From IMG/VR virus record IMGVR_UViG_3300022682_000033, positions 3,893 to 67,892 of that record: a stretch of 64,000 nt of DNA, one strand, 5' to 3'. Of this stretch, positions 31,811 through 63,948 are shown piece by piece (the stretch's first letter is position 1; every line of letters starts with the position of its first letter). A program made the translations under genes and the position numbers. This DNA is from a virus. Under the pieces are notes generated by a model that had not been told where the DNA came from, ran no database searches, and worked only from the letters and a program-made list of their open reading frames with translations.

Positions 31811-32377
31811 ATGAAAAAATTAATTTTTGTTTTCATGTTCATGGCTTTTTCTTATGGATGCGCTTCAATGCGCCCCGCAACGGATCATGTAATTGATATG
31901 AGCAAAGCCAATGAAGGCATATCAAGGCTTGAGCAAGATTTCAATAACACTGTTAGGTTGCTGACAGAATTGCATGACAAGTCAACCGCTGAAGGGAAAC
32001 CGGTGTTTACGGATCAGGAATGGGACGTTTTAGACGGGGAGGTTAGGCCGACTTTCTCATTGTTGATTGTTAAACTTAAAGGACGAAATAGCCTATATGT
32101 TACACTTGATGACATGAAAATGTTTTGGGGCCTGGCCGTCGATGCTTACAAAAAAGCAAGGCCTATTTTGCAGCGAAAATGGGGGATGCTTGACCGGGAT
32201 ACGAAAAGCCTTCTCTATGCTTTCGACAAAGAAGCTGTAAGCACGAATGAAATTATCCAAAAGATGCTTGACAACCCAAAATCTGAACAATATGATGAAA
32301 TTTTATCGTTGATTCTGAAACTCGGGAAAACAGGTCTTGGCGTTATGTCAACAACCGTTTTGCCGTTACTATTGTGA
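31811..32377 (+). CDS. Putative lipoprotein
   Basis: MKK + hydrophobic stretch + SYGC lipobox. Confidence 0.55.
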   Translation: MKKLIFVFMFMAFSYGCASMRPATDHVIDMSKANEGISRLEQDFNNTVRLLTELHDKSTAEGKPVFTDQEWDVLDGEVRPTFSLLIVKLKGRNSLYVTLDDMKMFWGLAVDAYKKARPILQRKWGMLDRDTKSLLYAFDKEAVSTNEIIQKMLDNPKSEQYDEILSLILKLGKTGLGVMSTTVLPLLL

Positions 32378-32644
32378 TTTTTCATAGAAAGGAGGGTCTA
32401 TGTAATCTACAAAAAATGGGTCAGCACAACGTGAATTAAATTAGGGAAATTATTAAGCCGGTCATGGTTTGAAGACATGATCGGCTTTTTTTGTTGCAAT
32501 AATAATTTAATCGTGATACAGCCCCTGAAAAAGGGGATAGGGAAAGCCTGTACAACTTTTCCGAAACCCGTCAACGGTGAGACGGCTTCCCCACAACTCT
32601 TCATTCACCTGTTATAAATCCTTAGCATCGAAAGGAACCCCGAC

Positions 32645-33487
32645 TTGTCAAAAAAAGATTTACCCATCGAGAAACCAGTCCAAAACTGGACAAAATTTCC
32701 AAATATTATTTTAGACAATATAGAAAAATTCACATCCGCTGAATTTAAAATTTTGGGTCTGATGGTTAGGAAAAACATTGGATATGATAAACCAAATAAA
32801 CGCTTTTCGATTAGTTATATAAGCTCTAAGACTGGTTTAAGCGATCCCACCGTTATAAAAGCAATCAATGGGCTTTTATCAAAAAAATCAATAAAAATTA
32901 TTGGAAGTGGTCAGAGAAGCGTAAGGCTATTCGATATAAATTGGATTGACCCGCAAACAACGACTACTAAAGAAACTTTACCGGTAAAGAAATTTAACCG
33001 GTCAAAAAACTTTAGTGGTACTACTAAAGAAACTTTACCAGAACCGGTAAAGAAACTTTACCCATTACAAGAAAACAAAAGTATTAGAAAACAAACTACA
33101 ACAACACAGCCGCCGCAGTCGCTTTTAAATATCTTTCCCAAAACCCTAAAACTAACACCGCGTAAAAAATTAGAGCTTGAATTGCTAATTGATGAACACG
33201 GTATTGATTACGTGAAAGCCAATGCGCTTTATGCTATCAATAATTTCAGGACCAATTTTTGGGCATATTTCAAAAAAAGCTGTGAAAACGATTATGCAAC
33301 TGAAAATGAAACCTTTGAAAACCCGAATGATAAACCACCTGAACACTTAAAAGACGGCACTGTTGTAATTTTCAGCGGAAAAGAATATACCGTCGAGGCT
33401 GGTGGGTTTCTGTATACCGATTACGGTTGTTACGCTCCCGGACAGGTTGCCGCGGCTGTTGCAAGCGGATTGATGGATATAAAATAG
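32645..33487 (+). CDS. Phage replication initiator (gpO-like)
   Basis: WTKFPNIILD start, wHTH (ISYISSKTGLSDPTVIKAINGL), internal DNA repeats. Confidence 0.7.
   Translation: MSKKDLPIEKPVQNWTKFPNIILDNIEKFTSAEFKILGLMVRKNIGYDKPNKRFSISYISSKTGLSDPTVIKAINGLLSKKSIKIIGSGQRSVRLFDINWIDPQTTTTKETLPVKKFNRSKNFSGTTKETLPEPVKKLYPLQENKSIRKQTTTTQPPQSLLNIFPKTLKLTPRKKLELELLIDEHGIDYVKANALYAINNFRTNFWAYFKKSCENDYATENETFENPNDKPPEHLKDGTVVIFSGKEYTVEAGGFLYTDYGCYAPGQVAAAVASGLMDIK
32963..33062. repeat. Iteron-like repeats (putative origin)
   Basis: TAAAGAAACTTTACC at 32968, 33025 and 33048 plus variants at 32985 and 33003. Confidence 0.7.
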
Positions 33488-33506
33488 ACATGAAACCACA
33501 TAGCTA

Positions 33507-33535
33507 TTGACAGCCATTTTAAAATTTTATATGTT
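33507..33535 (+). promoter_or_regulatory. Sigma70-type promoter for the antirepressor leader
   Basis: TTGACA-17-TATGTT. Confidence 0.6.
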
Positions 33536-33540
33536 GGTGG

Positions 33541-33669
33541 TGCTTGAAATTAGGAGTATCGGTAAAGCCCACGTCAGCGGCTTTTTATATTGTGTATTTA
33601 CCCGAGCTTCCACCATCCGTGAGGACGTGGGCGTCGATACTCCGACGTAAGCAAAGCTCGGGTTTTTTT
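33541..33669 (+). ncRNA. Structured leader/attenuator upstream of the antirepressor
   Basis: GGAGTATCG/CGATACTCC and GCCCACGTC/GACGTGGGC stems crossed by ACCCGAGCTT/AAGCTCGGGT plus a T-run. Confidence 0.55.
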
Positions 33670-33708
33670 ATTTTTCTAATGCTTTAAGCCTTGAAAGGAG
33701 GCAGAGTA

Positions 33709-34521
33709 ATGAACAATGAACTAATCAAGATCGAAAAAAAGACCATTGGTGAAGAAGAAGTTACTGCGGTTGATGCGCGTGAGCTACATGCATTTTTGGA
33801 AGTCGGTAAGGTCTTTGCAGCTTGGATTCAAGAACGTATTGAGCAGTACGGTTTTAAAGAAAATCTGGACTATGAGGTTTTTTCCAAAAGCGGAAAAAAC
33901 CCCACAGGTGGCCGACCTTCAAAGGAATACTATGTTTCCATCGACATGGCCAAAGAACTTGCGATGGTTGAAAGGAATGAAAAGGGCAAACAAGCCAGGC
34001 AATATTTTATAGAGTGTGAAAAGATCGCCAAAAAAGCTGCTATTGGGAATGCACCCAAAATAAAAAAACCTTCTATATCTCGCGTAAATTCAGATTTTAA
34101 TGCGTTCGTGAAAATGGCTAAGACTTTCGGCATTGAAGGGAATCAGGCATTGCTTACCGCGAATAAAAGCGTAATTAAGCTACATGGTTTTAATTGTATG
34201 GAAGCATTGGGCGTCACGCACTTGATTTCCAAAAAACAGGAGCTTGATCTTACACCTACAGCTATTGGAAATCGTTTAGGTGGCATTCCTGCTACACAAG
34301 TTAATAAACTGCTTAAAAGTGCTGGTTTCCAAAAATCATTTCGTGATGCTAAAAAAAAGCTGCAATGGGAACCGACGGAAAAAGGCAAACCGTATTCAAT
34401 GATCAAGGACACGAATAAAAAACATAGTGACGGCACACCGGTAAAGCAACTTTTTTGGACGGCGGATATCGTTCCATTCGTCGAAGATGAGCTTAACGGT
34501 TTGGATGGAATTAAAAAATAA
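33709..34521 (+). CDS. AntA/AntB-family antirepressor
   Basis: VDARELHAFLEV, DMAKELAMVERNEKGKQARQYFIECEK. Confidence 0.9.
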   Translation: MNNELIKIEKKTIGEEEVTAVDARELHAFLEVGKVFAAWIQERIEQYGFKENLDYEVFSKSGKNPTGGRPSKEYYVSIDMAKELAMVERNEKGKQARQYFIECEKIAKKAAIGNAPKIKKPSISRVNSDFNAFVKMAKTFGIEGNQALLTANKSVIKLHGFNCMEALGVTHLISKKQELDLTPTAIGNRLGGIPATQVNKLLKSAGFQKSFRDAKKKLQWEPTEKGKPYSMIKDTNKKHSDGTPVKQLFWTADIVPFVEDELNGLDGIKK

Positions 34522-34522
34522 G

Positions 34523-34553
34523 CCGGAATCTTCCGGTTAATCGCTGGTTATAT
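34523..34553 (+). repeat. Cassette-run leader motif (half-attC/attI-like), copy 1
   Basis: CCGGAATCTTCCGGTTAATCGCTGGTT; copies at 36246, 37693 and 40071. Confidence 0.7.
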
Positions 34554-34565
34554 GGAGGGAAAACA

Positions 34566-34790
34566 ATGATTTCAGACAAACTATATAGTGAACTCGAAAA
34601 AATGAAATGGAACGGCGGTGTTTACGGAGTTAGCCCAAAAGGACCTGCAAATAATGCGGTATGGTCACATTTACAGGATGCCGTTGATATTGGAAGCATA
34701 TCACCGATGGATGCGTATGACGCACTAAAACTTGGGTATTTGCCCGAACATTTGACGGTTCGTAAATCAAGATACGCACATTTATTATAA
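34566..34790 (+). CDS. Cassette ORF, hypothetical
   Basis: GGAGG RBS; stop codon within the attC R'' core. Confidence 0.6.
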   Translation: MISDKLYSELEKMKWNGGVYGVSPKGPANNAVWSHLQDAVDIGSISPMDAYDALKLGYLPEHLTVRKSRYAHLL

Positions 34791-34842
34791 CCTGTCATTC
34801 CAGCGGACCTAAAAAGCCGGCCGCTGAATTCAAACGTTATCA
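34785..34842 (+). repeat. attC-like site
   Basis: TTATAAC...ATTCCAGCGG/CCGCTGAAT...GTTATCA. Confidence 0.8.
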
Positions 34843-34940
34843 TGCTATCGAGATAGGGTCGCCACCGAAAAGCAAGTATCCTGTTCTTGTCTGCTCGATA
34901 GCTCATTAAAAACAGGAAACCCTGAACAGGAGGAGTCCTT

Positions 34941-35303
34941 ATGATTACGTATTTAGAAACAACACAGCCGAATTGGAAACCGTTTGAAGCAATTATCGCA
35001 CAAGTAACGCCTGATATTATCCAGTCGTCTCCGTTTCCACTATTCCAGAGAGATCCAGAATATTTTCTTCATGATTTTATGCACATGGGAACAATCACGG
35101 ATTCGTATTTACCAGAAAAACAGATAGAGATTTACAAACATTGTGATACGAGGCGGTGTTTGAATATTGATAATAGCGGACAATGTTATGCTTTCGGGTC
35201 AAAGGTTCTTGATGAAACGAAAGATCCCTGGGATGATGGATATGATGAGAGCATCTACACCCCCATTGAAACACAGTCGGCATTATGGATCGCATTATCG
35301 TAG
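34941..35303 (+). CDS. Cassette ORF, hypothetical
   Basis: AGGAGG RBS; cassette ends GTTATCAT/ATGATAAC. Confidence 0.65.
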   Translation: MITYLETTQPNWKPFEAIIAQVTPDIIQSSPFPLFQRDPEYFLHDFMHMGTITDSYLPEKQIEIYKHCDTRRCLNIDNSGQCYAFGSKVLDETKDPWDDGYDESIYTPIETQSALWIALS

Positions 35304-35310
35304 TCAGCAA

Positions 35311-35432
35311 TGATAACAATGCGTTTGCAGCCGACGCAAGCCCGCGCCCGCTGTAAAGCGCATCGTCATAAATAGCGTCGTCTCACCGCGCATGTCCTGT
35401 GTGGCTTGCGCGGCTGAAACGCGGCGTTATGC
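35311..35432 (+). repeat. attC-like site (long)
   Basis: TGATAACAATGCGTTTGCAGCCG...CGGCTGAAACGCGGCGTTATGC. Confidence 0.85.
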
Positions 35433-35506
35433 CGCAGTCGCCCAGTTGGCCGGGAGCACGTTTTGTAAGCGTGATGACGTCGGTTCGAATCCGACCTGCG
35501 GCTCCA
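35431..35506 (+). tRNA. tRNA-Thr(UGU), sole cargo of an attC cassette
   Basis: 76-nt cloverleaf: GCCGCAG/CTGCGGC acceptor, anticodon loop TTTGTAA, GTCGG-TTCGAAT-CCGAC T arm, encoded CCA; one D-stem mismatch. Confidence 0.85.
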
Positions 35507-35562
35507 TAACCCACCGCTCAAGCGGACGCAAAACAGCCGCGCCGCTTAATTGATCGTTAGCA
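35504..35562 (+). repeat. attC-like site
   Basis: CCATAAC...TCAAGCGG/CCGCTTA...GTTAGCA. Confidence 0.8.
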
Positions 35563-35586
35563 ATTTCAGAGGGGAAGGAGAAGACT

Positions 35587-35892
35587 GTGCCTATCAGACC
35601 TGAAAATAAGATGAGATATCCAAAAGATTGGAAAACCAGATCCAGATTTATACGGTTTTTCCGTGCCAAAAATCATTGCGAATGGTGCGGCGCTGAAAAC
35701 TACAAACCTCATCCGATTACAGGTTCAAAAGTGGTTCTCACCTGCGCCCATGTTTATGATCACAGGCCAGAAGCATCTAACTTGCTAAACCTTGCGGCAC
35801 TGTGTCAGAGATGCCACAATCGGCATGATGCCGGTTTGCGACGCAGTGAGCGCAGAAAAAGGCTTAATGCCAATCAACTGGAATTGTTTTGA
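35587..35892 (+). CDS. HNH-fold protein
   Basis: CEWC...AH..H...NLAALCQRCHNRHD. Confidence 0.75.
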   Translation: MPIRPENKMRYPKDWKTRSRFIRFFRAKNHCEWCGAENYKPHPITGSKVVLTCAHVYDHRPEASNLLNLAALCQRCHNRHDAGLRRSERRKRLNANQLELF

Positions 35893-35915
35893 CAAGCTAT
35901 AATAAGATCAGCCCG

Positions 35916-35945
35916 GTAGGGTGGGCGCGGGTGTTTGCGCCCACC
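35916..35945 (+). repeat. GTAG-family REP-like palindrome
   Basis: GTAG-GGTGGGCGC-loop-GCGCCCACC. Confidence 0.5.
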
Positions 35946-36147
35946 ACATCAAAACCGAACTATGATTTGTAGGATTTCAGAATTAATAGGATTAAGAGCT
36001 AAAAAAATGTCTATAGAATATAAATTAAGATCAAATGGAAAAACAAAATGTGAAAATCTTGATTGCGGCCGAACGATTTTATTAAACGAGGAATACGTAG
36101 TTGTAGAATTTAAAAACATTACCATAAAACTATGCAAAAAGTGCGCA

Positions 36148-36203
36148 TCTTAACCCATCTCTCCACCGGTCTAAAACCCGCGCCGGTGAGCTAATCGTTG
36201 AAC
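36148..36203 (+). repeat. attC-like site
   Basis: TCTTAAC...CTCCACCGG/CCGGTGAG...GTTGAAC. Confidence 0.75.
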
Positions 36204-36245
36204 GTTGAATGTTGAAAGTTGAACGTTCAACATCCAAACAAAAAC

Positions 36246-36269
36246 CTTCCGGTTAATCACTGGTTGGAC
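36246..36269 (+). repeat. Cassette-run leader motif, copy 2 (5'-truncated)
   Basis: CTTCCGGTTAATCACTGGTT. Confidence 0.65.
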
Positions 36270-36341
36270 GCCTTAAACGTGGTGAGGTTAGTTTTCCAAG
36301 CACGGTGCGTTTATCATAAAAAAACTAAATACCTCCGTGCC

Positions 36342-36397
36342 GCCCAACCAACCATACAAGCTGACGAAAAACACCGCTGCTTAACTAATCGTTGTGA
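36342..36397 (+). repeat. attC-like site (degenerate)
   Basis: GCCCAAC...CAAGC/GCTTA...GTTGTGA. Confidence 0.65.
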
Positions 36398-36404
36398 GGA
36401 GAAC

Positions 36405-36653
36405 ATGCAAATAATAAATACGGTTGAAATAATATGTATGAATTGTGAGAAACAATTATCGGTGGAATATCCAGGCCCAAAGCTACAAAACGGGAAGTGG
36501 ATATTCAGGGTGCTACCGTTCTGCGATAATTGCGCAGCACAACCCAACACTCAAGCGGAATCGCCGCCGTCAGTCGATCACGGTGTTCCGTGTTCTAAAT
36601 GCGGTGCAACTGATAACTGGATTTGCCTTTGCGAAATGCGGCAATCCGATTAG
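36405..36653 (+). CDS. Cassette ORF with CxxC pairs, reading into its attC
   Basis: GAGGAG RBS immediately after the GTT core. Confidence 0.5.
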   Translation: MQIINTVEIICMNCEKQLSVEYPGPKLQNGKWIFRVLPFCDNCAAQPNTQAESPPSVDHGVPCSKCGATDNWICLCEMRQSD

Positions 36654-36666
36654 TTCTATGTTATAT
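36537..36666 (+). repeat. attC-like site (long, degenerate)
   Basis: GCACAAC...TCAAGCGGA/TCCGATTAG...GTTATAT. Confidence 0.6.
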
Positions 36667-36719
36667 GCCTATGAAATGCGAACAACGCGCCGCCGCCTAA
36701 TTAAACATTCAACCACACA

Positions 36720-37133
36720 ATGACGAAAAACGAACTAAAAACAGTAGCCTTGCTCGCATTTGCAAAGGCAACACTCGAAAAAATTGGCAATTGCAAAAAC
36801 GCTGAAAATATTGTAGTAAGTGCTATGGACCAGTGGCCTGCCTTAGAACAGAAAAACGTTAATACGTTTTGCCGCTGGTTTGAGGCGTTTGAAAGGCAAA
36901 CATGGAATGGCGAATTGCAAGACCAATTTGTTAATTTGAGTTTTTCAATCGCTATTTTGGATGACATTTCAACATACTTTTCAGGTAAAAAACTTGGCCT
37001 GGTTGAAGATGTTATAGATTCACTTTCGAGATTGTACTATGAAAAAATAGAAAATCAGAATGACCATGAGGTTAATGAGAGCGCGGCTAATGCCGCCAAT
37101 GCATGGAGAAATATAATCAATGACGACTATTGA
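36720..37133 (+). CDS. Hypothetical protein
   Basis: ORF in a tightly packed run. Confidence 0.5.
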   Translation: MTKNELKTVALLAFAKATLEKIGNCKNAENIVVSAMDQWPALEQKNVNTFCRWFEAFERQTWNGELQDQFVNLSFSIAILDDISTYFSGKKLGLVEDVIDSLSRLYYEKIENQNDHEVNESAANAANAWRNIINDDY

Positions 37134-37371: not shown

Positions 37372-37710
37372 ATGGTAAATTTGAAACCGGCATGGAAATC
37401 AATCGAAGGTCAAGGTTCAAGCGGTGTGATTGGTGTTTTGCTGTACTTTTTGAATGACGTTTTGTCAGGAGAAAGGTTCAGCAAAAATATTGTTGAACTG
37501 TTACAATCCATAGCAGGTACGATGGATTTTGACAAAATATTCTTGATCCAAGAAATTGCAACAATCGTAAAGACAGGTTTAATTCTTACAGCGGTTTGTT
37601 TTGTGCTGTTCAAGCTTGTAGAGCACCGGTCTTATTTGAAAAACGATGCGATCAAGGCAGCAGAGAACATCGAAATAGCAAAGATGAACACACCGGAATC
37701 TTCCGGTTAA
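37372..37710 (+). CDS. Membrane protein (holin-like candidate)
   Basis: Two hydrophobic segments; AAGGAG RBS; near the endolysin. Confidence 0.4.
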   Translation: MVNLKPAWKSIEGQGSSGVIGVLLYFLNDVLSGERFSKNIVELLQSIAGTMDFDKIFLIQEIATIVKTGLILTAVCFVLFKLVEHRSYLKNDAIKAAENIEIAKMNTPESSG

Positions 37711-37723
37711 TCACTGGTTAGAA
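37693..37723 (+). repeat. Cassette-run leader motif, copy 3
   Basis: CCGGAATCTTCCGGTTAATCACTGGTT. Confidence 0.7.
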
Positions 37724-39760: not shown

Positions 39761-40069
39761 ATGAGCAAAACGTTAAAAATTATATTGGTATTGATGGTAT
39801 CCGTACTGTTTTTCGGATGTCAAAAAAAGCATGTTAGGACGCAACCAATAGACGTTCCGAACATAGGCGTTACTTATATCTTGACCGAATCAAATATTGG
39901 GACACGAAGCATCACAATTTACGGCAGGCTGTATAAAAGCGGTCTCCAAATTTACGGCTTCCACATAGGCCAAAAAATAAAAACGATGGACAACAGGACT
40001 TTTGAGTGGGTCGGATGCGATAACAGGAATTATGCTAATGGGTGGGTCGAAATTGATCCTATAAAATAA
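39761..40069 (+). CDS. Putative lipoprotein
   Basis: Signal peptide with FFGC lipobox; follows the endolysin. Confidence 0.5.
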   Translation: MSKTLKIILVLMVSVLFFGCQKKHVRTQPIDVPNIGVTYILTESNIGTRSITIYGRLYKSGLQIYGFHIGQKIKTMDNRTFEWVGCDNRNYANGWVEIDPIK

Positions 40070-40070
40070 G

Positions 40071-40101
40071 CCGGAATCTTCCGGTTAATCACTGGTTATG
40101 C
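40071..40101 (+). repeat. Cassette-run leader motif, copy 4
   Basis: CCGGAATCTTCCGGTTAATCACTGGTT. Confidence 0.7.
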
Positions 40102-40116
40102 GTAAAAGGATTTACT

Positions 40117-40344
40117 ATGGAATGCCAAAAATGTGGCAGAGAAAAAATATTCTGTGAACAGGCAATTACAGGGTTCCCAGACTATCATGTTGCCGGAAGC
40201 ATAGTTGAATATTGTGGTTTTTGCGACGAACCTCCAATTACCGCATTAAATCCTGGAGGTCGCAAAATTATTTTACAGCATAACCAGTCGCCGCTTAACT
40301 CAAACGTTAGCTGTATTGGTAGGGTTGATTTGAATGTACATTGA
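40117..40344 (+). CDS. Cassette ORF, zinc-ribbon-like
   Basis: CQKC and CGFC; AAGGA RBS. Confidence 0.5.
   Translation: MECQKCGREKIFCEQAITGFPDYHVAGSIVEYCGFCDEPPITALNPGGRKIILQHNQSPLNSNVSCIGRVDLNVH
40278..40312 (+). repeat. Internally deleted attC-like site (35 bp)
   Basis: GCATAACCAGTCG-CCGCTTAACTCAAACGTTAGCT. Confidence 0.6.
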
Positions 40345-41633: not shown

Positions 41634-43667
41634 ATGTCAACAAAAATACCAAGTTCAAAAATTGAATCGATGTGGCGAAACCTTGATCCGGAAATTAAGG
41701 CAGATTGGATACAGACCGCCATTGTGAATTATAATGTTCCTCGTAATGTTGCAGAAATAAAAGCCGTCGAGTTGTTCTGGGAAGCAGAAAATGCAAAAAG
41801 CAAAATGGCTGAGTATCAATCAGGCCCAGAAGGATGTATCCGCTGGATTAATGATAACATATACCAAAAGGTGATCCCGTATGGCGGGCATGTCCATCAA
41901 TGGGTTCCGATGGGAGAATTGCCAACAAAAAAAGATAAATATGGCAGGTCATACAAAACTATGTGGGAGGCTCAGCAAAAGGTTATTATGGAAGCCCTTG
42001 CCGTTGATAGCACCGGAACTTATAAGCATAACCTGATAGCTCTCGTTTGGCCTCGTGGCCTTGGAAAAAGTTTTCTCGCGGTGTGCATTGGGCTTTATCG
42101 TTTTATTTGTTTCAGCTATCAAAAAGTTTATTTCAGCGCGAATAGCTACGATGAGAGTGACGAGTTGCATTTCAGTGAGGCGAAAACGCTTCTTCTTAAT
42201 AGTCCTGTCTTGTGTGAAATAATAGGTGAAAATAACATACTATCAAATAAAATTAGATTCGTTGCCGGTGATAAAAATGTAATGAATGAGATAAAAATAA
42301 TATCTCAAAAACGCGGCATTGTTTCTAATGCTGCTGTTGTGACTCAAACAGAGGTTTTTAAACAAGAATCCGATACTTTTTTTGCTCAATGGTATGGAAG
42401 TTTGAGGATGACACATAATGCGCTTGGTATAATTGATTCAACCGTGTCAGACAAAAGCCATTGGCTATATCGTCTGTATAGAAATGCAAAAAAAGACCCT
42501 GGTGGGCCAGTATATTTCAACTACTATGGATGGGAGGACGCTAAGGCAAAATATTTCTGGCACCCTGGGATGACAGATCGTGATCTGGCCGGCTTTAAAA
42601 CAGCAATGTCCAGACGGGACTTTGACAGATATTATAATAACCTATGGGGGAAACAAGGGGTTGGGTTATTTGACAATATTGATATTGGCGCAATTGGATA
42701 TTTTGGGGCAAATGGAGTCCCGATATGCCATGAGGTTGTTAAGGATACACTGAAAAGGGCAAATAAGAAATCGCAGCGCATTGTGGTTCAGCAACTTCAA
42801 CAACAGCCTACGAGGCGCCAGGAGGTCGCAGCCGAATTGATTGGGTCTCTCATGCCGGTGGAAGACTTTTATTCTCTCGGCCAGCATTCGTTCGACAAAG
42901 AAACGACCATACGAAGGCCATCCATTATGCCGGGAATGAAAGAGGCCAGAAAGATAACCGATGCGCTGCAAACAAATTTGTTCTCTTTGCTGGTTGGTAT
43001 TGACCGTGCGGAACCAAACAAGTTCAGCACCACTGGTGCAAAAACAGTCGTGTCTTGGATGATTAAAGTTCCGGCCGGTGAAATGTTTACAGGATTCGCG
43101 GAAGACCCGTATATGTACGTTCTTTTCGGTTTGGCGGTAGTAGAAAATTCTATGAGCCACCCGATTATTACACTGTTGTCCGAAATACATAATTGTATGG
43201 GGATTGATTTTTTGTGTGGGGATCGATATAACTTTAGTGAGATATCGCCATGGTGTGATCAAAATGGAATCAAGTGGAGGTCTGTAAACCCGACGCTTGA
43301 AATTCAGAGGCAGGGGTTCGGGTTGTTTATCCGAGCCGTAAACAACGGTCTGTTTAAGGCTCCTCCAATGCCGGTAGCAGGTGTCACTCAAGCTGATATC
43401 TTGAGAGAAGAGCTTTCTGTGTTTGACGAGCTTGGGAAGCACAAGCAAACAGGCGTTTCAAAATACGGAAGCCCACAAAAACACAAAGCAAACGGTATTC
43501 AGGACGACGCTATGGATTCAATCGGGATCGGTATGTTTGGCGGGATGGGCATTACAAAAGCCCACATGATCGACAAGTTTGCTCAAAAGAAAAGCAGCCT
43601 ACCATATCTGAAAATGATCAATGGCCCGGCTTCCATTCAGGACACATACTCGTCTTTGTATATGTAA
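41634..43667 (+). CDS. terL: Terminase large subunit
   Basis: Walker A WPRGLGKS, R.Y.N.W linker, nuclease motifs VGID, GDRY and QDDAMDS. Confidence 0.75.
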   Translation: MSTKIPSSKIESMWRNLDPEIKADWIQTAIVNYNVPRNVAEIKAVELFWEAENAKSKMAEYQSGPEGCIRWINDNIYQKVIPYGGHVHQWVPMGELPTKKDKYGRSYKTMWEAQQKVIMEALAVDSTGTYKHNLIALVWPRGLGKSFLAVCIGLYRFICFSYQKVYFSANSYDESDELHFSEAKTLLLNSPVLCEIIGENNILSNKIRFVAGDKNVMNEIKIISQKRGIVSNAAVVTQTEVFKQESDTFFAQWYGSLRMTHNALGIIDSTVSDKSHWLYRLYRNAKKDPGGPVYFNYYGWEDAKAKYFWHPGMTDRDLAGFKTAMSRRDFDRYYNNLWGKQGVGLFDNIDIGAIGYFGANGVPICHEVVKDTLKRANKKSQRIVVQQLQQQPTRRQEVAAELIGSLMPVEDFYSLGQHSFDKETTIRRPSIMPGMKEARKITDALQTNLFSLLVGIDRAEPNKFSTTGAKTVVSWMIKVPAGEMFTGFAEDPYMYVLFGLAVVENSMSHPIITLLSEIHNCMGIDFLCGDRYNFSEISPWCDQNGIKWRSVNPTLEIQRQGFGLFIRAVNNGLFKAPPMPVAGVTQADILREELSVFDELGKHKQTGVSKYGSPQKHKANGIQDDAMDSIGIGMFGGMGITKAHMIDKFAQKKSSLPYLKMINGPASIQDTYSSLYM

Positions 43668-43720
43668 CGATTGAAGCCAGCGGCGCGGGGTTTTGCGTCC
43701 GGTGGATTGAATGGTTATGT
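43662..43720 (-). repeat. attC-like site overlapping the terL stop codon
   Basis: Minus strand ACATAAC..TCCACCGGACGCAAAACCCCGCGCCGCTGG..GTTACAT. Confidence 0.75.
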
Positions 43721-43835
43721 GCCGCCTGGAATTGAACCAAGACCGGGACACCTTCACGAACCGTCATTTAAGGCGGAGTCGAACCGCCAGGATCTCCCGT
43801 GTTCATGACCACTGCACCTGCTGTGGGTCAAGCAC
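43719..43835 (-). ncRNA. tRNA-like pseudoknotted RNA A (cassette cargo)
   Basis: Closing stem, D-like arm, two T-loop hairpins, crossing helices; same topology as 47772-47897. Confidence 0.65.
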
Positions 43836-43860
43836 ATAACGATTGAACTAACCGGCGCAC
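43834..43860 (-). repeat. 3' half of an attC-like site
   Basis: Minus strand GCGCCGGTTAGTTCAATCGTTATGT. Confidence 0.6.
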
Positions 43861-44058
43861 AACGCATTAATTAGTAGATTATCCTACGTAGCGCCTTTTC
43901 CGTTGGAATCCACGCCCAATCTCCAATCCTACGTCGCAGAAGTCCGAGTCTGTACAGGTCAATTTTGATTTGTTTCCAGCATTTCGCGCGGATCATTCGA
44001 TCATCACCTTTGGAAATTATGTGCCGCAACGCCTTTTTATGTTCGACTGAAAGATGTG

Positions 44059-44340
44059 TCATTTTATTGTGCCGCTTGGCATCAATCGGTAATACAAAGT
44101 TTTTGGAATGCACAGGTCGTCTGCGATATCTTTTTTACTCATTCCGCCAGCAAGCTTTCTTTTTATAGCCATTTTAAGGCACTCATGCTGCTTTCTGACG
44201 GCGTTCTTGTATGCACCCATCATTTGCACCGTGGTATATTGCGCGATACGTTGTCGTGACCGTCCTAAGATTCTCGCGCAATCAGCTTGCGGTATGCCTT
44301 CGGCCAGCATTTTTGATATGGTTTCTTTTGTGACTTCCAT
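44059..44340 (-). CDS. HTH DNA-binding protein
   Basis: GIPQADCARILGRSRQRI and GMSKKDIADDLCIPKTLYYR. Confidence 0.6.
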   Translation of the reverse strand: MEVTKETISKMLAEGIPQADCARILGRSRQRIAQYTTVQMMGAYKNAVRKQHECLKMAIKRKLAGGMSKKDIADDLCIPKTLYYRLMPSGTIK

Positions 44341-45110
44341 TAAGGCAACGCCTTTCGATATTTGCATAGTAAATTTTTATCTTCTTTAAGGTTTTGCTCA
44401 AATTGGTTTATTACGTCAACATGATATGCATTTACGGTATCCCATTCACTATCAGTTTTTATTTTTCTGATTTCGAATCCAAGAAAATTGGATAGATTAG
44501 TTAATTTTTTCCCTATTTGTTGGTAAGCAGGTTTGGGTTTGATTCTTAGATCGAAGTATTTTCGCAGCCAAGGGATTGCCTTTACCGTTTTGTATTTTTC
44601 GCCGTCCCCTAATTTTTCTTTTAGCTTTTTGTTCTGCCTTGACAATACGGATGCTGTAGCCATTGCCGTGGCCGTTTTCTTGTTGTTGATATGTGCCTTT
44701 GTTCTTATCGCCTCATCCCGTTGAGCAAAGGCAAGTTGTTTTTGATCGTAAATATCTGCCCACGCCCTGGCAGCCTCGGATGGATTTGTAAAGTCAGGTA
44801 TTGCAACCTGGTTTTTCATTAACTCGGATTCGAGTTCTTCAAGCATGTCTACTATTTTAGCACGAAGCGGAATAGAATAACCGGAAACAAGAATGATAAC
44901 CTCTCTCTTTGGAAGCAAGTAACAATTCTGTTCTCTGCCATAGCTGTCTTTATAGATGTGCCCAAAAATGGGCACATCTTTTCCGTGTAATTCAAGCAAC
45001 ATACGTTCAGCGTCTCTTTTTACATGCCTGTGTTCTTTTCCTGTTCGTTGAGCGATTTCAACCGTTGTCATAGCAATTTTATTTGTATTCGGTTTTGTTA
45101 CTTCATTCAT
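44340..45110 (-). CDS. Rha-family regulatory/antirepressor protein
   Basis: MTTVEIAQRTGKEHRHVKRD, LVSGYSIPLRAKI, PDFTNPSEAARAWAD. Confidence 0.85.
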   Translation of the reverse strand: MNEVTKPNTNKIAMTTVEIAQRTGKEHRHVKRDAERMLLELHGKDVPIFGHIYKDSYGREQNCYLLPKREVIILVSGYSIPLRAKIVDMLEELESELMKNQVAIPDFTNPSEAARAWADIYDQKQLAFAQRDEAIRTKAHINNKKTATAMATASVLSRQNKKLKEKLGDGEKYKTVKAIPWLRKYFDLRIKPKPAYQQIGKKLTNLSNFLGFEIRKIKTDSEWDTVNAYHVDVINQFEQNLKEDKNLLCKYRKALP

Positions 45111-45111
45111 T

Positions 45112-45297
45112 TCAACCCTCCTTTTGGTCATCATCTTTAAAACAATTCAATGCGATTATCGCACCCGCAACCATGTGCATGATAATATGAGATATCCAAA
45201 TTAAATCAAGTTCGGGCTCGATGCCCAATAAAACAGTATCTACAAATGTTGTTGTAAAAGCAAAAGCCATAACAATTACCACATGTTTCATAATCAC
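45112..45297 (-). CDS. Small membrane protein
   Basis: Two hydrophobic segments. Confidence 0.4.
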   Translation of the reverse strand: MIMKHVVIVMAFAFTTTFVDTVLLGIEPELDLIWISHIIMHMVAGAIIALNCFKDDDQKEG

Positions 45298-46108
45298 ACC
45301 TTATCATTATTAATTTCGGTTATGTTAAGTAATTTTTTCACGCCCGGAATGAAAGTTATCATCCGGTCAACGCATACGCAGCAGAGCTTTCTTCTTGGTT
45401 CATCCTCTATCCACGAATCAACATAGTATGCAACCGGGTGTTTTGAGCATGCTTCGCAATATCCAGCTTTCATTTCAGATTCCTTTCTTAATTTTGGTAG
45501 CAATGGCGCAATTCCGCAACCCGTTGAACACACACACCTGAAAAAGCATGTGCATTGAGGCTGGTATGACCTAACCTCTGGCATGATTGCATGAAAGAAA
45601 AGAGTTTTAAAAAATTTTCGTCGATTTTTTCATGCAACCAAGCGTACTACCAGATTTACCAGGGTACCTTTTAGACTGGGCCAGCAGCTGAACACCCCAC
45701 CGATTAAATGCCGTGGTCGCGGTAAAACATGTGCGTGTATATTGGGAGTCTTTAAAAACGAATCCCATCCCTGTATATCCCGAAAACGGGCGAGCGGGTT
45801 GATCACTCGCCTGGCAGTAACTTCTTCCGGTTACTACTCAGGTTGCGTATTTTTGTGGCTGAAAGCATACCTTTTTAAAAAACAACGCTGCATAACAAAA
45901 AAAGCGCTTTTATGAGAGGGGGCGACTCCACAGGGAAAAAGTCGCCTCCAAGGTGGAATTGCCAAGGAAACCCTCTCATAAAAACGCTTTATGTTATTCC
46001 CTATGGATGTTTTAGCAATTGAACTCAGCGTTTTCCAGGCGCGTCATCGTTCAAAAACTGTCAAAAGATACAATTTGTTTTTGGCTCTGTCAAGTATAAA
46101 AATATCTA

Positions 46109-46297
46109 TCACTTGTTGGATAAAACTTCGGGATTTAGTTTCAAAAATTCTAATATCCCCTGAGCGACACCTTCTTTGATAGCTTTTTGGACGTTTATTT
46201 TGTTACCACCAGCCCACCATGATTTGTCTTGTTCTTCCAAAAATCTTAAAAAGGCGTGCTCAATTCCTTTTTTAACATCTCTTTGATTGATATCCAT
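46109..46297 (-). CDS. Hypothetical protein
   Basis: AGGAGGG RBS directly after an attC core. Confidence 0.55.
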   Translation of the reverse strand: MDINQRDVKKGIEHAFLRFLEEQDKSWWAGGNKINVQKAIKEGVAQGILEFLKLNPEVLSNK

Positions 46298-46937
46298 TAT
46301 TCCCTCCTAACGCCTCAAATAACCGGCGCGGCTTTTTGCGTCCGGTGCAGCGACTGGTTATGTGACGCATTATGTATTCGCCCAATTCTGGCAAAATACA
46401 ATTTCTTAGAACTTGTCGCTTGTTTTTAATCTTGGACTGAGCAACGACTTCATATTCGGCAAAGTCGGATATTTTGTTTTTACTTCTGATTTTTACCGGT
46501 TTAAAATCCATATGCGGTACGGTATCACTTGACCAAAATAAATGACGATGCAGAATGAATGACGGCTCGACCAACGGTGTATAGTAAGGTTTTGTATTTT
46601 CAACGACCCATTGCCCCTCGAAATATGTTTTCAGGAAAACGATCTGTGCATAAAGCGACATATCCGGCATTATTGGGTCAAAACCTTTTCCGATGACCCC
46701 GACATTGTGCCGATATTGTCCGTGACTTGGGCATGGTGGCGAAGCCCATATAAAATCATATTCGGCATAGTGTTTTTCAAGATAGTGCAGCGCATCACCA
46801 ACAATTACCGTATCATTTGGGTAAAGTAATTGGTAAACAGCTGCAATATCAGGATCAAGTTCAACAGCGGTCACATGATGCCATTTCCATAATTTACGAT
46901 TGCCGCCGATTCCTGCATATAAATTCAAAACTTTCAT
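46272..46937 (-). CDS. C5-cytosine DNA methyltransferase (short, cassette-borne)
   Basis: LNLYAGIGG, WASPPC, VVEN; reads through its attC. Confidence 0.85.
   Translation of the reverse strand: MKVLNLYAGIGGNRKLWKWHHVTAVELDPDIAAVYQLLYPNDTVIVGDALHYLEKHYAEYDFIWASPPCPSHGQYRHNVGVIGKGFDPIMPDMSLYAQIVFLKTYFEGQWVVENTKPYYTPLVEPSFILHRHLFWSSDTVPHMDFKPVKIRSKNKISDFAEYEVVAQSKIKNKRQVLRNCILPELGEYIMRHITSRCTGRKKPRRLFEALGGNNGYQSKRC
46305..46363 (-). repeat. attC-like site
   Basis: Minus strand ACATAAC..GCACCGGACGCAAAAAGCCGCGCCGGTT..GTTAGGA. Confidence 0.8.
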
Positions 46938-46959
46938 AAACACCTCCGATATTAAGTCA

Positions 46960-47018
46960 ATCTAACGTTTCAAATAACCGGCGCTGGGGTTTGCGTCCGG
47001 TTGAACAGATTGTTATGC
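46960..47018 (-). repeat. attC-like site
   Basis: Minus strand GCATAAC..TTCAACCGGACGCAAACCCCAGCGCCGGTTA..GTTAGAT. Confidence 0.8.
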
Positions 47019-47037
47019 TACATCATCCCGATTATAA

Positions 47038-47152
47038 ATGCGTCTCCGTGTGTCCAGCTTTCTCATCGCGGCAGCACGTCTGCTTGCCGGGGTGATATTG
47101 GTCTCGCACCGTCCCTCACCTGGGCCATCATAGCGCAGTGACGGAGACGCAT
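47038..47152 (-). ncRNA. Structured RNA C (ORF-less cassette)
   Basis: 12-bp closing stem ATGCGTCTCCGT/ACGGAGACGCAT with internal hairpins. Confidence 0.55.
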
Positions 47153-47212
47153 AACGGTTAAGCTAACCAACGCGCGGCTTTTTGCGCGTCCGGGTTTAGC
47201 GAATGGTTAGCC
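47149..47212 (-). repeat. attC-like site
   Basis: Minus strand GGCTAAC..GCTAAACC..GGTTAGC..GTTATGC. Confidence 0.75.
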
Positions 47213-47428
47213 GACAGCAGTTATTTCAGCAACGTCCGCAATAATATTTAATGCTGCCCTCAGTCCAGGCACATAAATTCGGTCACGCCTGAGATCATGT
47301 TCAATGTGATTGACGATTACAGACGATATATTCCCCAATGAGATTGAATCAACCAATCCCCAGGTGAACTGTTCTGGAAATTCCTCATTGTAGCTATCGT
47401 GATCCTTCACCTTCATGAATTCTCCCAT
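47207..47428 (-). CDS. Cassette ORF, hypothetical
   Basis: AAGGAG RBS; cassette ends GTTAGCC/GGCTAAC. Confidence 0.6.
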   Translation of the reverse strand: MGEFMKVKDHDSYNEEFPEQFTWGLVDSISLGNISSVIVNHIEHDLRRDRIYVPGLRAALNIIADVAEITAVG

Positions 47429-47442
47429 GAATTCTCCTTTCT

Positions 47443-47500
47443 GGCTAACGATTAGCTCACCGGCGCTGGGGTTTGCGTCCGGTGGAGCGATTGGTTATTT
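47443..47500 (-). repeat. attC-like site
   Basis: Minus strand AAATAAC..GCTCCACCGG..CCGGTGAGC..GTTAGCC. Confidence 0.85.
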
Positions 47501-47704
47501 ATTAATTGCCAATGGCTCAATATCTAAATTAATTGAAAACGCATATCCACAATCCTGACATTCCAGCGGTATGACAACAAAAAGATTTTTATTATCCGCG
47601 AAAAAAGGTTGATCCGAAATATTCCGTTTCAAATTATCACATCCACAATTAATGCAAAACGGATTAAGCTTTTCCGTAAATGTCACCTCATCCGTAGGTA
47701 TCAT
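47495..47704 (-). CDS. Cassette ORF, zinc-ribbon-like
   Basis: CINC and CQDC; stop codon in the R'' core. Confidence 0.6.
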   Translation of the reverse strand: MIPTDEVTFTEKLNPFCINCGCDNLKRNISDQPFFADNKNLFVVIPLECQDCGYAFSINLDIEPLAINK

Positions 47705-47714
47705 TTCAGTTCTC

Positions 47715-47773
47715 CAATAACGTTAATGATCACCGGCGCGGCTTTTTGCGTCCGCTCGAATGTCGGGTTATGT
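47715..47773 (-). repeat. attC-like site
   Basis: Minus strand ACATAAC..GCGGACGCAAAAAGCCGCGCCG..GTTATTG. Confidence 0.75.
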
Positions 47774-47897
47774 GCCGTCAGAATCGAACTGACCTCAACC
47801 AGGGTTTTCACCCTACGGCTATTTCACGATGCCGATTTGAACGGCCACCCCTGGTTTTCTTTTCCGCAGTTGCCAGTCACCAGTCTGGCTTGGGCAC
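47772..47897 (-). ncRNA. tRNA-like pseudoknotted RNA B (cassette cargo)
   Basis: GTGCC/GGCAC, D-like arm, crossing CTGCGG/CCGTAG and AACCAGGG/CCCTGGTT, two T-loop hairpins. Confidence 0.7.
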
Positions 47898-48023
47898 ATA
47901 ACGCCCGGGTCAGTTGCCTGGCGGTTAAAATTAAAACGGTGGCTTGCCGATGCAAACATGATCAAGCACTTCATTATCAAAAACCGCATCGCCCGCCCGG
48001 TCCACTGCACCTGCTTGTTGGGG
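47896..48023 (-). repeat. attC-like site (long)
   Basis: Minus strand CCCCAAC..GTGCAGTGG...CAACTGAC..GTTATGT. Confidence 0.65.
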
Positions 48024-48155
48024 GGCGTGTTGCGCTTCTCTGATAAGCCTTAATGCGGTCTGATGTCTGTTTTCATTCGGATATTTATTTTCAACTGCCA
48101 TTATTAGTTCGTAATAGCTTTCAAGCTGTTCAAACTCTTTCTCTTGAATTTCCAT
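47931..48155 (-). CDS. Cassette ORF, hypothetical, reading into its attC
   Basis: GGAGG RBS right after GTTGGGA; YYELIMAVENKYPNENRHQTALR. Confidence 0.55.
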   Translation of the reverse strand: MEIQEKEFEQLESYYELIMAVENKYPNENRHQTALRLIREAQHAPQQAGAVDRAGDAVFDNEVLDHVCIGKPPF

Positions 48156-48389
48156 AAAGCCTCCCAACAGTTTTGATAGACGGAAAACATTTCCGTCTAT
48201 TCAGATATTATTGTCAAATTTACGCAGACCTATTAAAGTCTCGCAAAAGTTCCTTGTATTTCGCCAATAGCAGATTGTATTTCTTATAAAGATTCAAATG
48301 TGAGTCAATAAGCGCCCAACTGTATTGGAAGTGCTTTAGTTTTCTCAGATGTTTCAAGTGACTCTCTTCCAATAATTTTGGTTTGTTTT

Positions 48390-53198: not shown

Positions 53199-53384
53199 AT
53201 GTTAGAAACAGAAACAGAAATAGAAAAAATTGAAAGTGAGTACATGAGCGCTGTCAGTGTTATAAACTCAAAGTTTGCCCCGTCTGATGATGATTGGAAA
53301 AGACTTGAAGTCGCAGAAAAAAAATATAACCAATTAATCCAGCGGAATCAGTGCCGGTTTGATTCCGCTGATCTTAACGTTTAA
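53199..53384 (+). CDS. Hypothetical protein ending in an attC-like site
   Basis: GAGG RBS; ORF track. Confidence 0.45.
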   Translation: MLETETEIEKIESEYMSAVSVINSKFAPSDDDWKRLEVAEKKYNQLIQRNQCRFDSADLNV

Positions 53385-53385
53385 C
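53324..53385 (+). repeat. attC-like site
   Basis: ATATAAC..ATCCAGCGGAATCA/TGATTCCGCTGAT..GTTTAAC. Confidence 0.7.
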
Positions 53386-53405: not shown

Positions 53406-53861
53406 ATGGGTAGAGAAATAAAAAGAGTGCCTCTTGATTTCGAGTGGCCAATCGGTGAAATTTGGCCGTTTTATTTGCACAATACATGTATTGACGATTG
53501 CGACAAATGCAAATTGGCGGCTAAAGAGATCGGTCTTGGAATGACAGAATATGGTTGTCCTGCATTTAAAAAATATAATCCACCGGAAGGCGTCGGATTT
53601 CAGTTGTGGGAGACGACGAGTGAAGGTTCTCCTATGTCTCCGGTTTTCGATACACCAGAAAGTCTTGCCGAATGGTTGGAGGCGAACAAGGTGAGTTCTT
53701 TTGCATCGTTTACATGCTCGTATGATCAATGGCTCGATTTTATACGTGGTCCGGGATGGGCTACGAGCGCCATCCTCGACAAAAACGGCTTTAGAAGCGG
53801 CGTTTGCGCCTCAGTCCAACCAGTCATTCAAGCGGACGGCAAAAAGGACGCCGCCGCTTAA
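53406..53861 (+). CDS. Conserved phage hypothetical protein (cassette-like)
   Basis: MGREIKRVPLDF.WP, G.QLWETTSEGSP.SPVF. Confidence 0.65.
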   Translation: MGREIKRVPLDFEWPIGEIWPFYLHNTCIDDCDKCKLAAKEIGLGMTEYGCPAFKKYNPPEGVGFQLWETTSEGSPMSPVFDTPESLAEWLEANKVSSFASFTCSYDQWLDFIRGPGWATSAILDKNGFRSGVCASVQPVIQADGKKDAAA

Positions 53862-53880
53862 TTCCACAGCCAGGTTAAAA
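53814..53880 (+). repeat. attC-like site with an eroded 3' end
   Basis: GTCCAACCAGTCATTCAAGCGG..CCGCTTAAT. Confidence 0.6.
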
Positions 53881-58843: not shown

Positions 58844-59761
58844 CTATATACCAATATGTGTTCCGATTGTGTTGATTATATCATTTCCTGGGCGCTCAGA
58901 ATCCCACAGGACGCCATCAAGGACGTATCGCAAATCAGACGGCCTTGCCATGATATATCTATCCATGATGGATTCTACGGTCTCTCCGAGCATGTGGGCT
59001 ATGATTTCTATTCGTATCCCACGGAACAGCGCTTTGGTTGCGAGGGTGCGCTTGAAAACATCGAACGGATCATCTATTTTGAGGTTAATGTCCTTGCTCG
59101 CAGCAGTCACCAACCTCGTTACCTCCCTGACATTCAGGTCGAATAGCAGCGGAGTATCGTCGCTTTCGTTACATGCGATTCCCGCTGCGGCAATCTTTAA
59201 TTTCGTTTGGTTTGAAAACACCACAAATCTTGTCCTCAAACCATTGATAATGAACAGACTTCTTGTTTCGGCGGAAAGGTCGCATTTTTTTGACGTGGAA
59301 ATCTCGACCGCGTTTAACCCCGTGTCGATCAGGATTGCTATTATCGCACGGTTGCGCTCATTATCGCTTTTCCAGGTATACGCTTTAAGCTGAAGGCACT
59401 CATGGTCAGAAAGCACGACGCCGGATGCTGAGTGGCGAATGTGCGATAACTCTCTTTGTTGTATGTTATCAAATGCAATCGTGATATCTGACTCCTCTGC
59501 CCCGTTGAACATGGCGAACCTTTTTGCGAGATTCACCTTTGCTTTAACTGTTGATTTTTTGGCATAATTCGATTCAAGCCAAATCTCATATTCTGAAACA
59601 GTCGCCATGCTATCTATCGGTAATGTCCATTCATGTTCTGCTAAAAAGCTATAAAATGGTTTTATGGCTCCCCTCATACCATCTTTTGATGTAGACTTTA
59701 TTTTTAGAGAGTTCAAAAACACATTGAACTTCGTTGCTATCTTATTACGTTCAGAATACAT
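58844..59761 (-). CDS. Tyrosine-recombinase-fold protein with a degenerate active site
   Basis: RNRAIIAILIDTGLNAVE, DVFKRTLAT, MLGE, DRY. Confidence 0.75.
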   Translation of the reverse strand: MYSERNKIATKFNVFLNSLKIKSTSKDGMRGAIKPFYSFLAEHEWTLPIDSMATVSEYEIWLESNYAKKSTVKAKVNLAKRFAMFNGAEESDITIAFDNIQQRELSHIRHSASGVVLSDHECLQLKAYTWKSDNERNRAIIAILIDTGLNAVEISTSKKCDLSAETRSLFIINGLRTRFVVFSNQTKLKIAAAGIACNESDDTPLLFDLNVREVTRLVTAASKDINLKIDDPFDVFKRTLATKALFRGIRIEIIAHMLGETVESIMDRYIMARPSDLRYVLDGVLWDSERPGNDIINTIGTHIGI

Positions 59762-63862: not shown

Positions 63863-63948
63863 GGAGGGATGGCCGAGTGGTTTAAGGCGGCGGTCTTGAA
63901 AACCGTTGTACGAAAGTACCGTGGGTTCGAATCCTACTCCCTCCGCCA
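63863..63948 (+). tRNA. tRNA-Ser(UGA)
   Basis: GGAGGGA/TCCCTCC acceptor, anticodon loop CTTGAAA, long variable arm, GGTTCGAATCC, GCCA end. Confidence 0.95.

Follow-up and report, generated by a model that had tools for sequence, protein, structure and literature searches.

Our favored reading, held with moderate confidence, is that the genome of a temperate siphovirus-like phage contains a cluster of true integron attC sites without an integrase, and that one 130-bp unit of this cluster is a gene cassette whose sole cargo is a predicted-functional tRNA-Thr(UGU). The unit lies in a window of 64,000 nucleotides (the whole stretch of DNA analyzed), which is part of a virus record of 67,892 bases (67.9 kb) estimated to be 75% complete. 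The evidence against this reading includes that there is a single case, that the record has no integrase, that the tRNA score is moderate, and that the tRNA contains a G10.A25 mismatch.

The record encodes a major head protein, a tape measure protein, a terminase-like protein, and replication proteins. It also encodes AntA-like, Rha-like, RecU-like, and C5 methyltransferase-like proteins and a GH108 lysozyme. The AntA-like protein has distant matches only, the best of them 60% over the N-terminal part, and no close relative of the phage was found. The integron integrase model TIGR02249 has no match in the entire 67.9 kb record. ORF 58844-59761 has a weak PHROG integrase match and matches no Pfam family. 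A complete integron has intI beside its array; here the array stands without it and is an integrase-less attC cluster (CALIN) in a phage, the minimum for a CALIN being two attC sites, as in section 3.4 of Qi et al. (PMC9892861).

The tRNA-Thr gene occupies positions 35431-35506 on the plus strand. ARAGORN calls it as a 76-nt tRNA with anticodon UGU (tgt) and an encoded CCA, and it is one of two tRNAs called in the whole window. Its Rfam score (RF00005) is 53.0 bits against a gathering score of 29, with model positions 1-71 of 71 covered. The ARAGORN drawing and the minimum-energy fold are both cloverleaves, in which the anticodon loop has 7 nt and the T loop is standard. A complete tRNA gene had been proposed here in a preliminary description of this DNA, and the ARAGORN call, the Rfam score, and the cloverleaf fold agree with it. 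The alignment, read by eye, shows U8, A14, G18G19, U33, the T-loop TTC, G1-C72, C2-G71, and G35U36, which we take to be positions that matter in a tRNA. In the Rfam alignment, G10.A25 in the D stem is the sole non-standard pair, and a C is found at the position that is usually A21.

The second tRNA of the window is a tRNA-Ser(UGA) at 63863-63948 (+), near the record end, with an Rfam score of 60 bits and no adjoining attC. TCA is the commonest Ser codon of the phage (27%), and the gene could belong to the phage or be a host tRNA gene at the end of a prophage.

The G10.A25 mismatch, the C at the usual A21, and a score of 53 bits that is lower than the 60 bits of the other tRNA could indicate that the tRNA-Thr is a decayed or decoy tRNA that is never charged, carried as a non-coding cassette like those of Vibrio. 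Two neighboring units with tRNA-like RNAs that are clearly not standard tRNAs (described below) point the same way. The gene nevertheless matches the full Rfam model with 24 bits over the cut-off, all four arms are intact, the anticodon loop has 7 nt, and CCA is encoded, and we consider a decayed or decoy tRNA very improbable. A functional tRNA remains the preferred reading of the gene.

A repeat finder identifies a family of GC-rich imperfect palindromes of about 59-60 nt in the window, with ends of the form ...TAAC and GTTA.... The repeats are on the plus strand amid plus-strand genes and on the minus strand amid minus-strand genes. Nine aligned copies yield a consensus fold in which an unpaired spacer separates an outer 4-bp helix from an inner stem. 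When a 16-pair structure is imposed on eight copies (alignment A2), 89.8% of the cells are paired; sliding the partners lowers this to 24-44%. Covariation in the eight-sequence alignment is weak, with 64 of 500 shuffles reaching the score. The bare heptamer GTTRRRY was dropped as evidence, with 114 occurrences found against 123 expected; since it is not enriched, the evidence rests on the whole structured site and not on the heptamer.

A covariance model, R1, was built from eight window repeats alone and served as the probe for such sites. Run on the window with filters off, R1 gives 13 matches at E<0.01, which are the eight training copies and five more. The model is strongly strand-specific; the site at 43662-43720, for example, scores 72.3 bits on the minus strand versus 11.6 on the plus strand. 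In three class 1 integrons (L058, L198, and L199), R1 detects five of the seven expected cassette junctions, always on the cassette strand, and it has no further match at E<0.01 in those 34 kb of class 1 integron loci. Both junctions are detected in L058, an E. coli plasmid integron (3986-4044 at 42.4 bits and 2874-2945 at 27.4 bits). L058 first came up because one window repeat weakly matched its last attC in blastn, which missed the second junction. L198 and L199 are plasmid loci that were chosen through intI1 only and not by their likeness in attC; R1 detects three of four junctions in L199 (32.8, 31.7, and 19.4 bits) and none of one in L198. In unrelated loci R1 has no match in 107 kb at E<=0.1 and none in 140 kb at E<=1.

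R1 also has six matches, at 30-48 bits, in a cassette-like array of plasmid pHRM2a (L059) of Desulforapulum autotrophicum. This array is a duplicated run of small same-strand genes that includes a RelE/ParE pair and a recombinase-family gene, and its attC type is the closest to that of the phage. Fifteen other viral contigs contain the attC subfamily of the window, all confirmed by R1. One of them (L073) has a run of five units, each a single small plus-strand ORF ending at an attC. In 615 kb around relatives of the 101-aa ORF that follows the tRNA unit, R1 has seven matches, which fall in 3 of 57 loci. The preliminary description took the flanks of the tRNA to be attC. They are attC by structure and by a model that detects true attC sites.

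At least 14 attC sites lie between 34.8 and 53.9 kb, namely the 13 R1 matches at E<0.01 and the site upstream of the tRNA, referred to as site B. The first of the plus-strand sites, A (34785-34842; 68.7 bits, in the training set), closes the unit of a 74-aa ORF whose TAA stop codon is part of the left core TATAAC. Four nucleotides after its right core begins an int-alpA RNA motif at 34846-34916 (+) (RF02996, 39.1 bits versus a cut-off of 35.8). The motif precedes a 120-aa ORF (34941-35303) within the same unit; a cassette would here include an RNA motif of a known kind. For the 120-aa ORF, viral contigs yield no relative. Site B, the tRNA, and its downstream site, C, follow. The first gene of the unit after the tRNA cassette is a Cys/His-rich ORF of 101 aa at 35587-35892 (+), which is HNH-like by eye only and has no Pfam family at E<=0.01. 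Site D (36148-36203, +; 57.1 bits, in the training set) closes this unit.

Outside the training set, the plus-strand sites are 36342-36397 (34.3 bits, E 5e-7), 53324-53385 (31.9 bits, E 2.5e-6), 53820-53869 (25.3 bits, E 2e-4), and a truncated attC at 40278-40312 that has the cores and the right arm and no left arm (22 bits, E 0.002). On the minus strand the sites are E (47715-47773; 66.7 bits), which closes a unit with a tRNA-like RNA; F (47443-47500; 74.7 bits), with the stop codon of a 69-aa ORF in its left core; G (47149-47212; 35.4 bits, E 2e-7, outside the training set); H (46960-47018; 68.9 bits); I (46305-46363; 69.7 bits), which follows the C5 methyltransferase-like ORF and has blastn matches to a class 1 integron attC and to the pHRM2a array; and J (43662-43720; 72.3 bits), which ends the minus-strand array and abuts the stop codon of ORF 41634-43667.

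Several other repeats are interspersed among the plus-strand units. At 35907-35947 (+), after the 101-aa ORF, a GC-rich hairpin is found that is present in many contigs of four public sequencing runs, the summed depth of its bin being 19-81 versus 1-11 for the adjoining 101-aa ORF. At 36197-36231 (+), right after an attC, four tandem heptamers of the right-core type (GTTGAAC, GTTGAAT, GTTGAAA, and GTTGAAC) are followed by an inverted copy; summed contig depths of 44-201 in the four public runs indicate a widespread repeat there. A second repeat family has four plus-strand copies placed after ORFs (34512-34551, 36228-36267, 37682-37721, and 40060-40099). Each consists of a short CCGGAA..TTCCGG hairpin and, after it, a segment that ends with GGTTAT or GGTTAG. 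The right part resembles an attC right arm and core, there is no AAC left core, and R1 makes no call.

All 13 R1 matches of the window at E<0.01 are co-oriented with the local genes, on both strands. This would also be seen if the tRNA were an ordinary resident phage tRNA and the attC-like hairpins were kept for a role in the transcript, as processing sites, stabilizers, or weak terminators between genes, with nothing moving and the cassette look a by-product. The absence of an integrase from the record fits such an account, as does the absence of evidence for mobility from scans of 57 loci, of viral contigs, and of public runs. The presence of weak terminators in attC sites is a view cited by Qi et al. 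(PMC9892861). Yet a transcript hairpin needs no AAC...GTT cores, no unpaired spacer, and no bulged bases, and these features carry over to true attC sites. A terminator scan of 32300-37000 lists nothing at site B or site C. Viral contig L001 (5158-6000) has attC sites that bracket a C5 methyltransferase-like ORF and a relative of the 101-aa ORF; these sites run opposite to the flanking genes, an arrangement that speaks against a strictly transcript-bound role. The boundaries of the units, examined below, bear further on this explanation, which we consider unlikely.

A unit of an integron array begins with the TT that follows the G in the previous unit's right core and ends on the G in its own. 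By this definition the tRNA cassette comprises positions 35427-35556 (+), 130 bp from crossover to crossover, bounded by G35426|T35427 and G35556|T35557. It contains just the tRNA and attC site C; the preliminary description had made the tRNA the only cargo of the cassette, as is indeed the case. ORFs of 51-80 aa that overlap the interval run over the tRNA and the attC sites.

Site B is a long attC of 122 nt at 35311-35432 (+), upstream of the tRNA, whose right core GTTATGC (35426-35432) contains the crossover G35426|T35427. The tRNA starts at the sixth base of this core, in agreement with the preliminary description, which had it beginning 5 nt into GTTATGC, so that the first two tRNA bases fall inside the core. 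The R1 score of site B is 12.7 bits, which is low because the central loop is long. Folded as the bottom strand, site B forms a 6-bp R (outer) helix that an internal loop of 2 nt separates from a long L stem, whose 3' arm carries two single-base bulges. Extrahelical bases have a role in the folded bottom strand of attC. The layout of the fold is that of the true attC L058:3986-4044 folded likewise. In alignment A4, the first 29 bases of the 5' arm are identical to L058:3986-4044 at 24 positions (hand count), and the arm also aligns with class 1 and pHRM2a attC sites. A contig of a public run (X1) carries site B at 105 of 112 positions. One X1 contig joins 35336 directly to 35410, giving a short form of site B that lacks the 73-nt center 35337-35409. 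The arms are therefore found without this center, and the long center of site B reflects an insertion or a deletion within an attC.

Site C is an attC of 59 nt at 35504-35562 (+), with the right core GTTAGCA and the crossover G35556|T35557. Its left core, CCATAAC (35504-35510), contains the CCA of the tRNA, as the preliminary description had it. Site C scores 68.8 bits with R1, being itself one of the eight R1 training sequences, and it is aligned in A1, A2, and A4; support independent of the training set comes from the class 1 attC sites that R1 detects. In the minimum-energy fold of site C alone the core helix does not form, and the inner stem has one bulge. The ORFs of neighboring units have their stop codons inside attC left cores, in the same manner as the CCA in the tRNA unit.

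If a unit has once been circular, its left core is expected to pair with its own first bases and not with those of the next unit. Measured from the coordinates, the perfect-match prefix is longer with a unit's own start than with the next start in nine of ten units, with one tie. The tRNA unit has a prefix of 6 with its own start versus 4 with the next, and the corresponding values for ORF units are 8/5, 7/4, 6/4, 6/5, and 4/3. Two tRNA-like units have long prefixes of 10 and 9, which also reflect their acceptor-like stems. The tie (4/4) is the C5 methyltransferase-like unit, whose left core instead fits the start motif of the tRNA-like units. The tRNA unit bears the signature expected from a circle inserted at G|TT. 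An own-start signature in nine of ten units is expected from circle insertion and not from an RNA function of the hairpins, which argues against a resident tRNA with transcript hairpins and for the cassette reading.

The ORF of the tied unit (46272-46943, -) matches only the first 80 of 324 positions of the C5 methyltransferase profile, and its frame continues through the attC at 46305-46363.

Three other units, all on the minus strand, appear to contain RNA only. The unit at 47766-47900 (-), between attC-like sites, holds only a 135-nt RNA with a fold z-score of -2.5. In this RNA a 7-bp acceptor-like stem prolongs the core pairing; a D-arm-like hairpin and a standard T arm with the loop TTCGATT are present, and a large branched middle region takes the place of an anticodon arm. 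With relaxed settings ARAGORN models it as a tRNA-Ser with a 41-nt intron, and this model was not accepted. The unit at 43720-43836 (-) has no ORF; its RNA combines an acceptor-like stem with two T-arm-like hairpins, whose loops are TTCGACT and TTCAATT. Shuffled sequences fold at least as well (z +0.25), and the start and end motifs of this unit are common to the unit at 47766-47900. A poor tRNA-Ile that spans and exceeds it, called by ARAGORN with relaxed settings, was likewise not accepted. The third unit, at 47035-47155 (-), has no ORF of at least 50 aa, and a 12-bp stem closes a structure of about 115 nt (z -2.4); there is no Rfam or ARAGORN call for it. An Rfam search of 43500-48300 at E<=5 assigns no name to any of the tRNA-like RNAs, and in 11 related loci Rfam finds no family. 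A pattern combining the 3' end of the tRNA-like units with attC occurs in 29 viral loci, of which only L061 is an attC by reading and none has an adjoining T arm.

A consensus scan for sigma-70-like sites finds none on the plus strand between 33535 and 35992, and therefore the tRNA is probably read through from upstream along with its neighbors. In 61 phage ORFs, ACA (33%) and ACG (26%) make up 59% of the 968 Thr codons, and an anticodon UGU reads both. In the proposed mechanism, the unit would have been inserted by an integron integrase from the host cell, and would still be excisable by it; the integrase is assigned to the host because the phage record encodes none. The tRNA would be transcribed from upstream promoters together with the neighboring genes. 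Its 5' end would be freed by RNase P, and its 3' end by an endonuclease and exonuclease trimming to the encoded CCA. It would then be charged with threonine and read ACA and ACG, the commonest Thr codons of the phage. That the flanking hairpins might aid processing, as the preliminary description supposed, is something we infer only.

Phage tRNAs can counter tRNA-cutting defenses, and the preliminary description proposed a mobile tRNA supply of this kind. If the tRNA unit is a real cassette that serves counter-defense, the tRNA would replace a host tRNA-Thr cut by an anticodon nuclease, or would escape cutting by its own sequence, and the mobility of the cassette would let phages and hosts trade it. 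Indirectly in its favor, neighboring units hold typical arms-race genes such as the C5 methyltransferase-like ORF, and phage attC clusters are reported to include cassettes for methyltransferases (PMC9892861). No feature of the sequence, however, points to a nuclease target, and a literature search on tRNA-Thr and anticodon nucleases in phages gave no such case in the sources available. As UGU matches the commonest Thr codons of the phage, codon supply is the simplest purpose, simpler than counter-defense. Judged from the sequence, plain codon supply would explain the tRNA gene equally well as defense evasion. We regard the counter-defense function as distinctly unlikely and retain the cassette with a functional tRNA, codon supply being its simplest purpose.

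The tRNA unit is a single case, with no second copy, empty site, or excised form found. A total of 57 viral loci encode relatives of the 101-aa ORF; only that ORF is common at the DNA level, and none of the 57 has an adjoining tRNA-Thr. No viral contig contains an exact match to a 39-nt stretch of the tRNA, and in none of the 15 other viral contigs with this attC subfamily does a tRNA lie between attC sites. A pattern combining the tRNA end with attC occurs at 15 loci in genome contigs, none of them an R1 match (chance matches). In metagenome contigs a stricter version has no match, and a looser version has 28 loci, none of them an R1 match. These patterns require CCA fused to the core and one attC subfamily, so the scans are narrow and their blanks weak. 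In cultured phages, blastn of 35300-35570 gives seven weak matches, of which six lie under annotated tRNA-Thr genes and one under no feature. Six public sequencing runs contain 7-10% of the sampled words from the region. Four of the six were compared; sites B and C, the 101-aa ORF, and two repeats are covered in them, and the tRNA is not. No RNA run with this stretch is among the public runs, which has no bearing on expression or its absence. With one case, and with movement and expression unproven, the tRNA cassette is a lead rather than a result.

If true, the tRNA cassette would widen the range of cargo that integrons mobilize and would join phage tRNAs and integron recombination, fields that are usually apart. 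The 130-bp unit would be a very small natural model for the formation of cassettes, which is itself still an open question, and the way in which the acceptor stem fits the paired attC cores suggests how room can be made for an RNA gene. A more general proposal, which is tentative and on balance doubtful, is that cassettes are not limited to protein genes. In this proposal, tRNAs and tRNA-like RNAs, in up to four of the ten tested units here, would be packaged with the acceptor stem extending the core pairing and traded by host integrases between phages and bacterial arrays, as a plug-in tRNA supply possibly directed against tRNA-cutting defenses. Cassettes are cataloged by their ORFs, and RNA cargo is therefore easily missed.

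The tRNA unit resembles a class 1 cassette in its G|TT bounds, AAC...GTT cores, unpaired spacer, bulged L stem, and own-start left core. The 3' end of its cargo enters the left core, which compares with the ORF stop codons in neighboring units. Unlike a class 1 integron, the phage has no integrase, attI, or Pc promoter at hand. A classical cassette consists of one promoterless ORF and an attC, whereas the tRNA unit is an RNA gene, 130 bp including the attC, whose acceptor stem directly extends the pairing of the two cores.

CALIN in phage genomes have already been published (Qi et al. 2023, PMC9892861), and in that study IntI1 recombined attI1 with five of the six tested attC sites of virulent phages. 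Like the phage CALIN of Qi et al., the window has several attC sites in a phage, no integron integrase nearby, and DNA methyltransferase cassettes; divergent site directions and units of several ORFs are also common to both. The cassettes of Qi et al. are ORFs, and the word tRNA does not occur in the main text, whereas the window has one tRNA-only unit and up to three further units with only structured RNA. Vibrio chromosomal integrons contain ORF-less cassettes that are conserved in sequence and have been proposed to make RNA (Boucher et al. 2006, PMC1382264). The tRNA unit is like these in having no ORF. The Vibrio cassettes have no assigned RNA family, and the word tRNA is absent from the text of that paper as available; the RNA of the window, in contrast, is a recognizable tRNA. 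In the portions of the IntegronFinder paper available, tRNA is mentioned only as an example of a covariance model, and the word is absent from the accessible text of a 2026 preprint on cassette recovery (10.64898/2026.03.17.712381). A literature search combining "tRNA cassette" and "integron" returned no paper. No description of a tRNA in an integron cassette was found in the literature, including the available text of PMC9892861, PMC4889954, PMC1382264, and PMC10865867; the supplementary tables of PMC9892861 and of the cassette surveys could hold one.

Like ordinary phage tRNA genes, the tRNA-Thr is a single tRNA that matches a much-used codon and is probably transcribed with its neighbors. 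To our knowledge, ordinary phage tRNAs are not framed by recombination sites; unlike them, the tRNA-Thr has both of its ends overlapping attC cores. The setting and the site are already known, and the tRNA cargo appears to be new.
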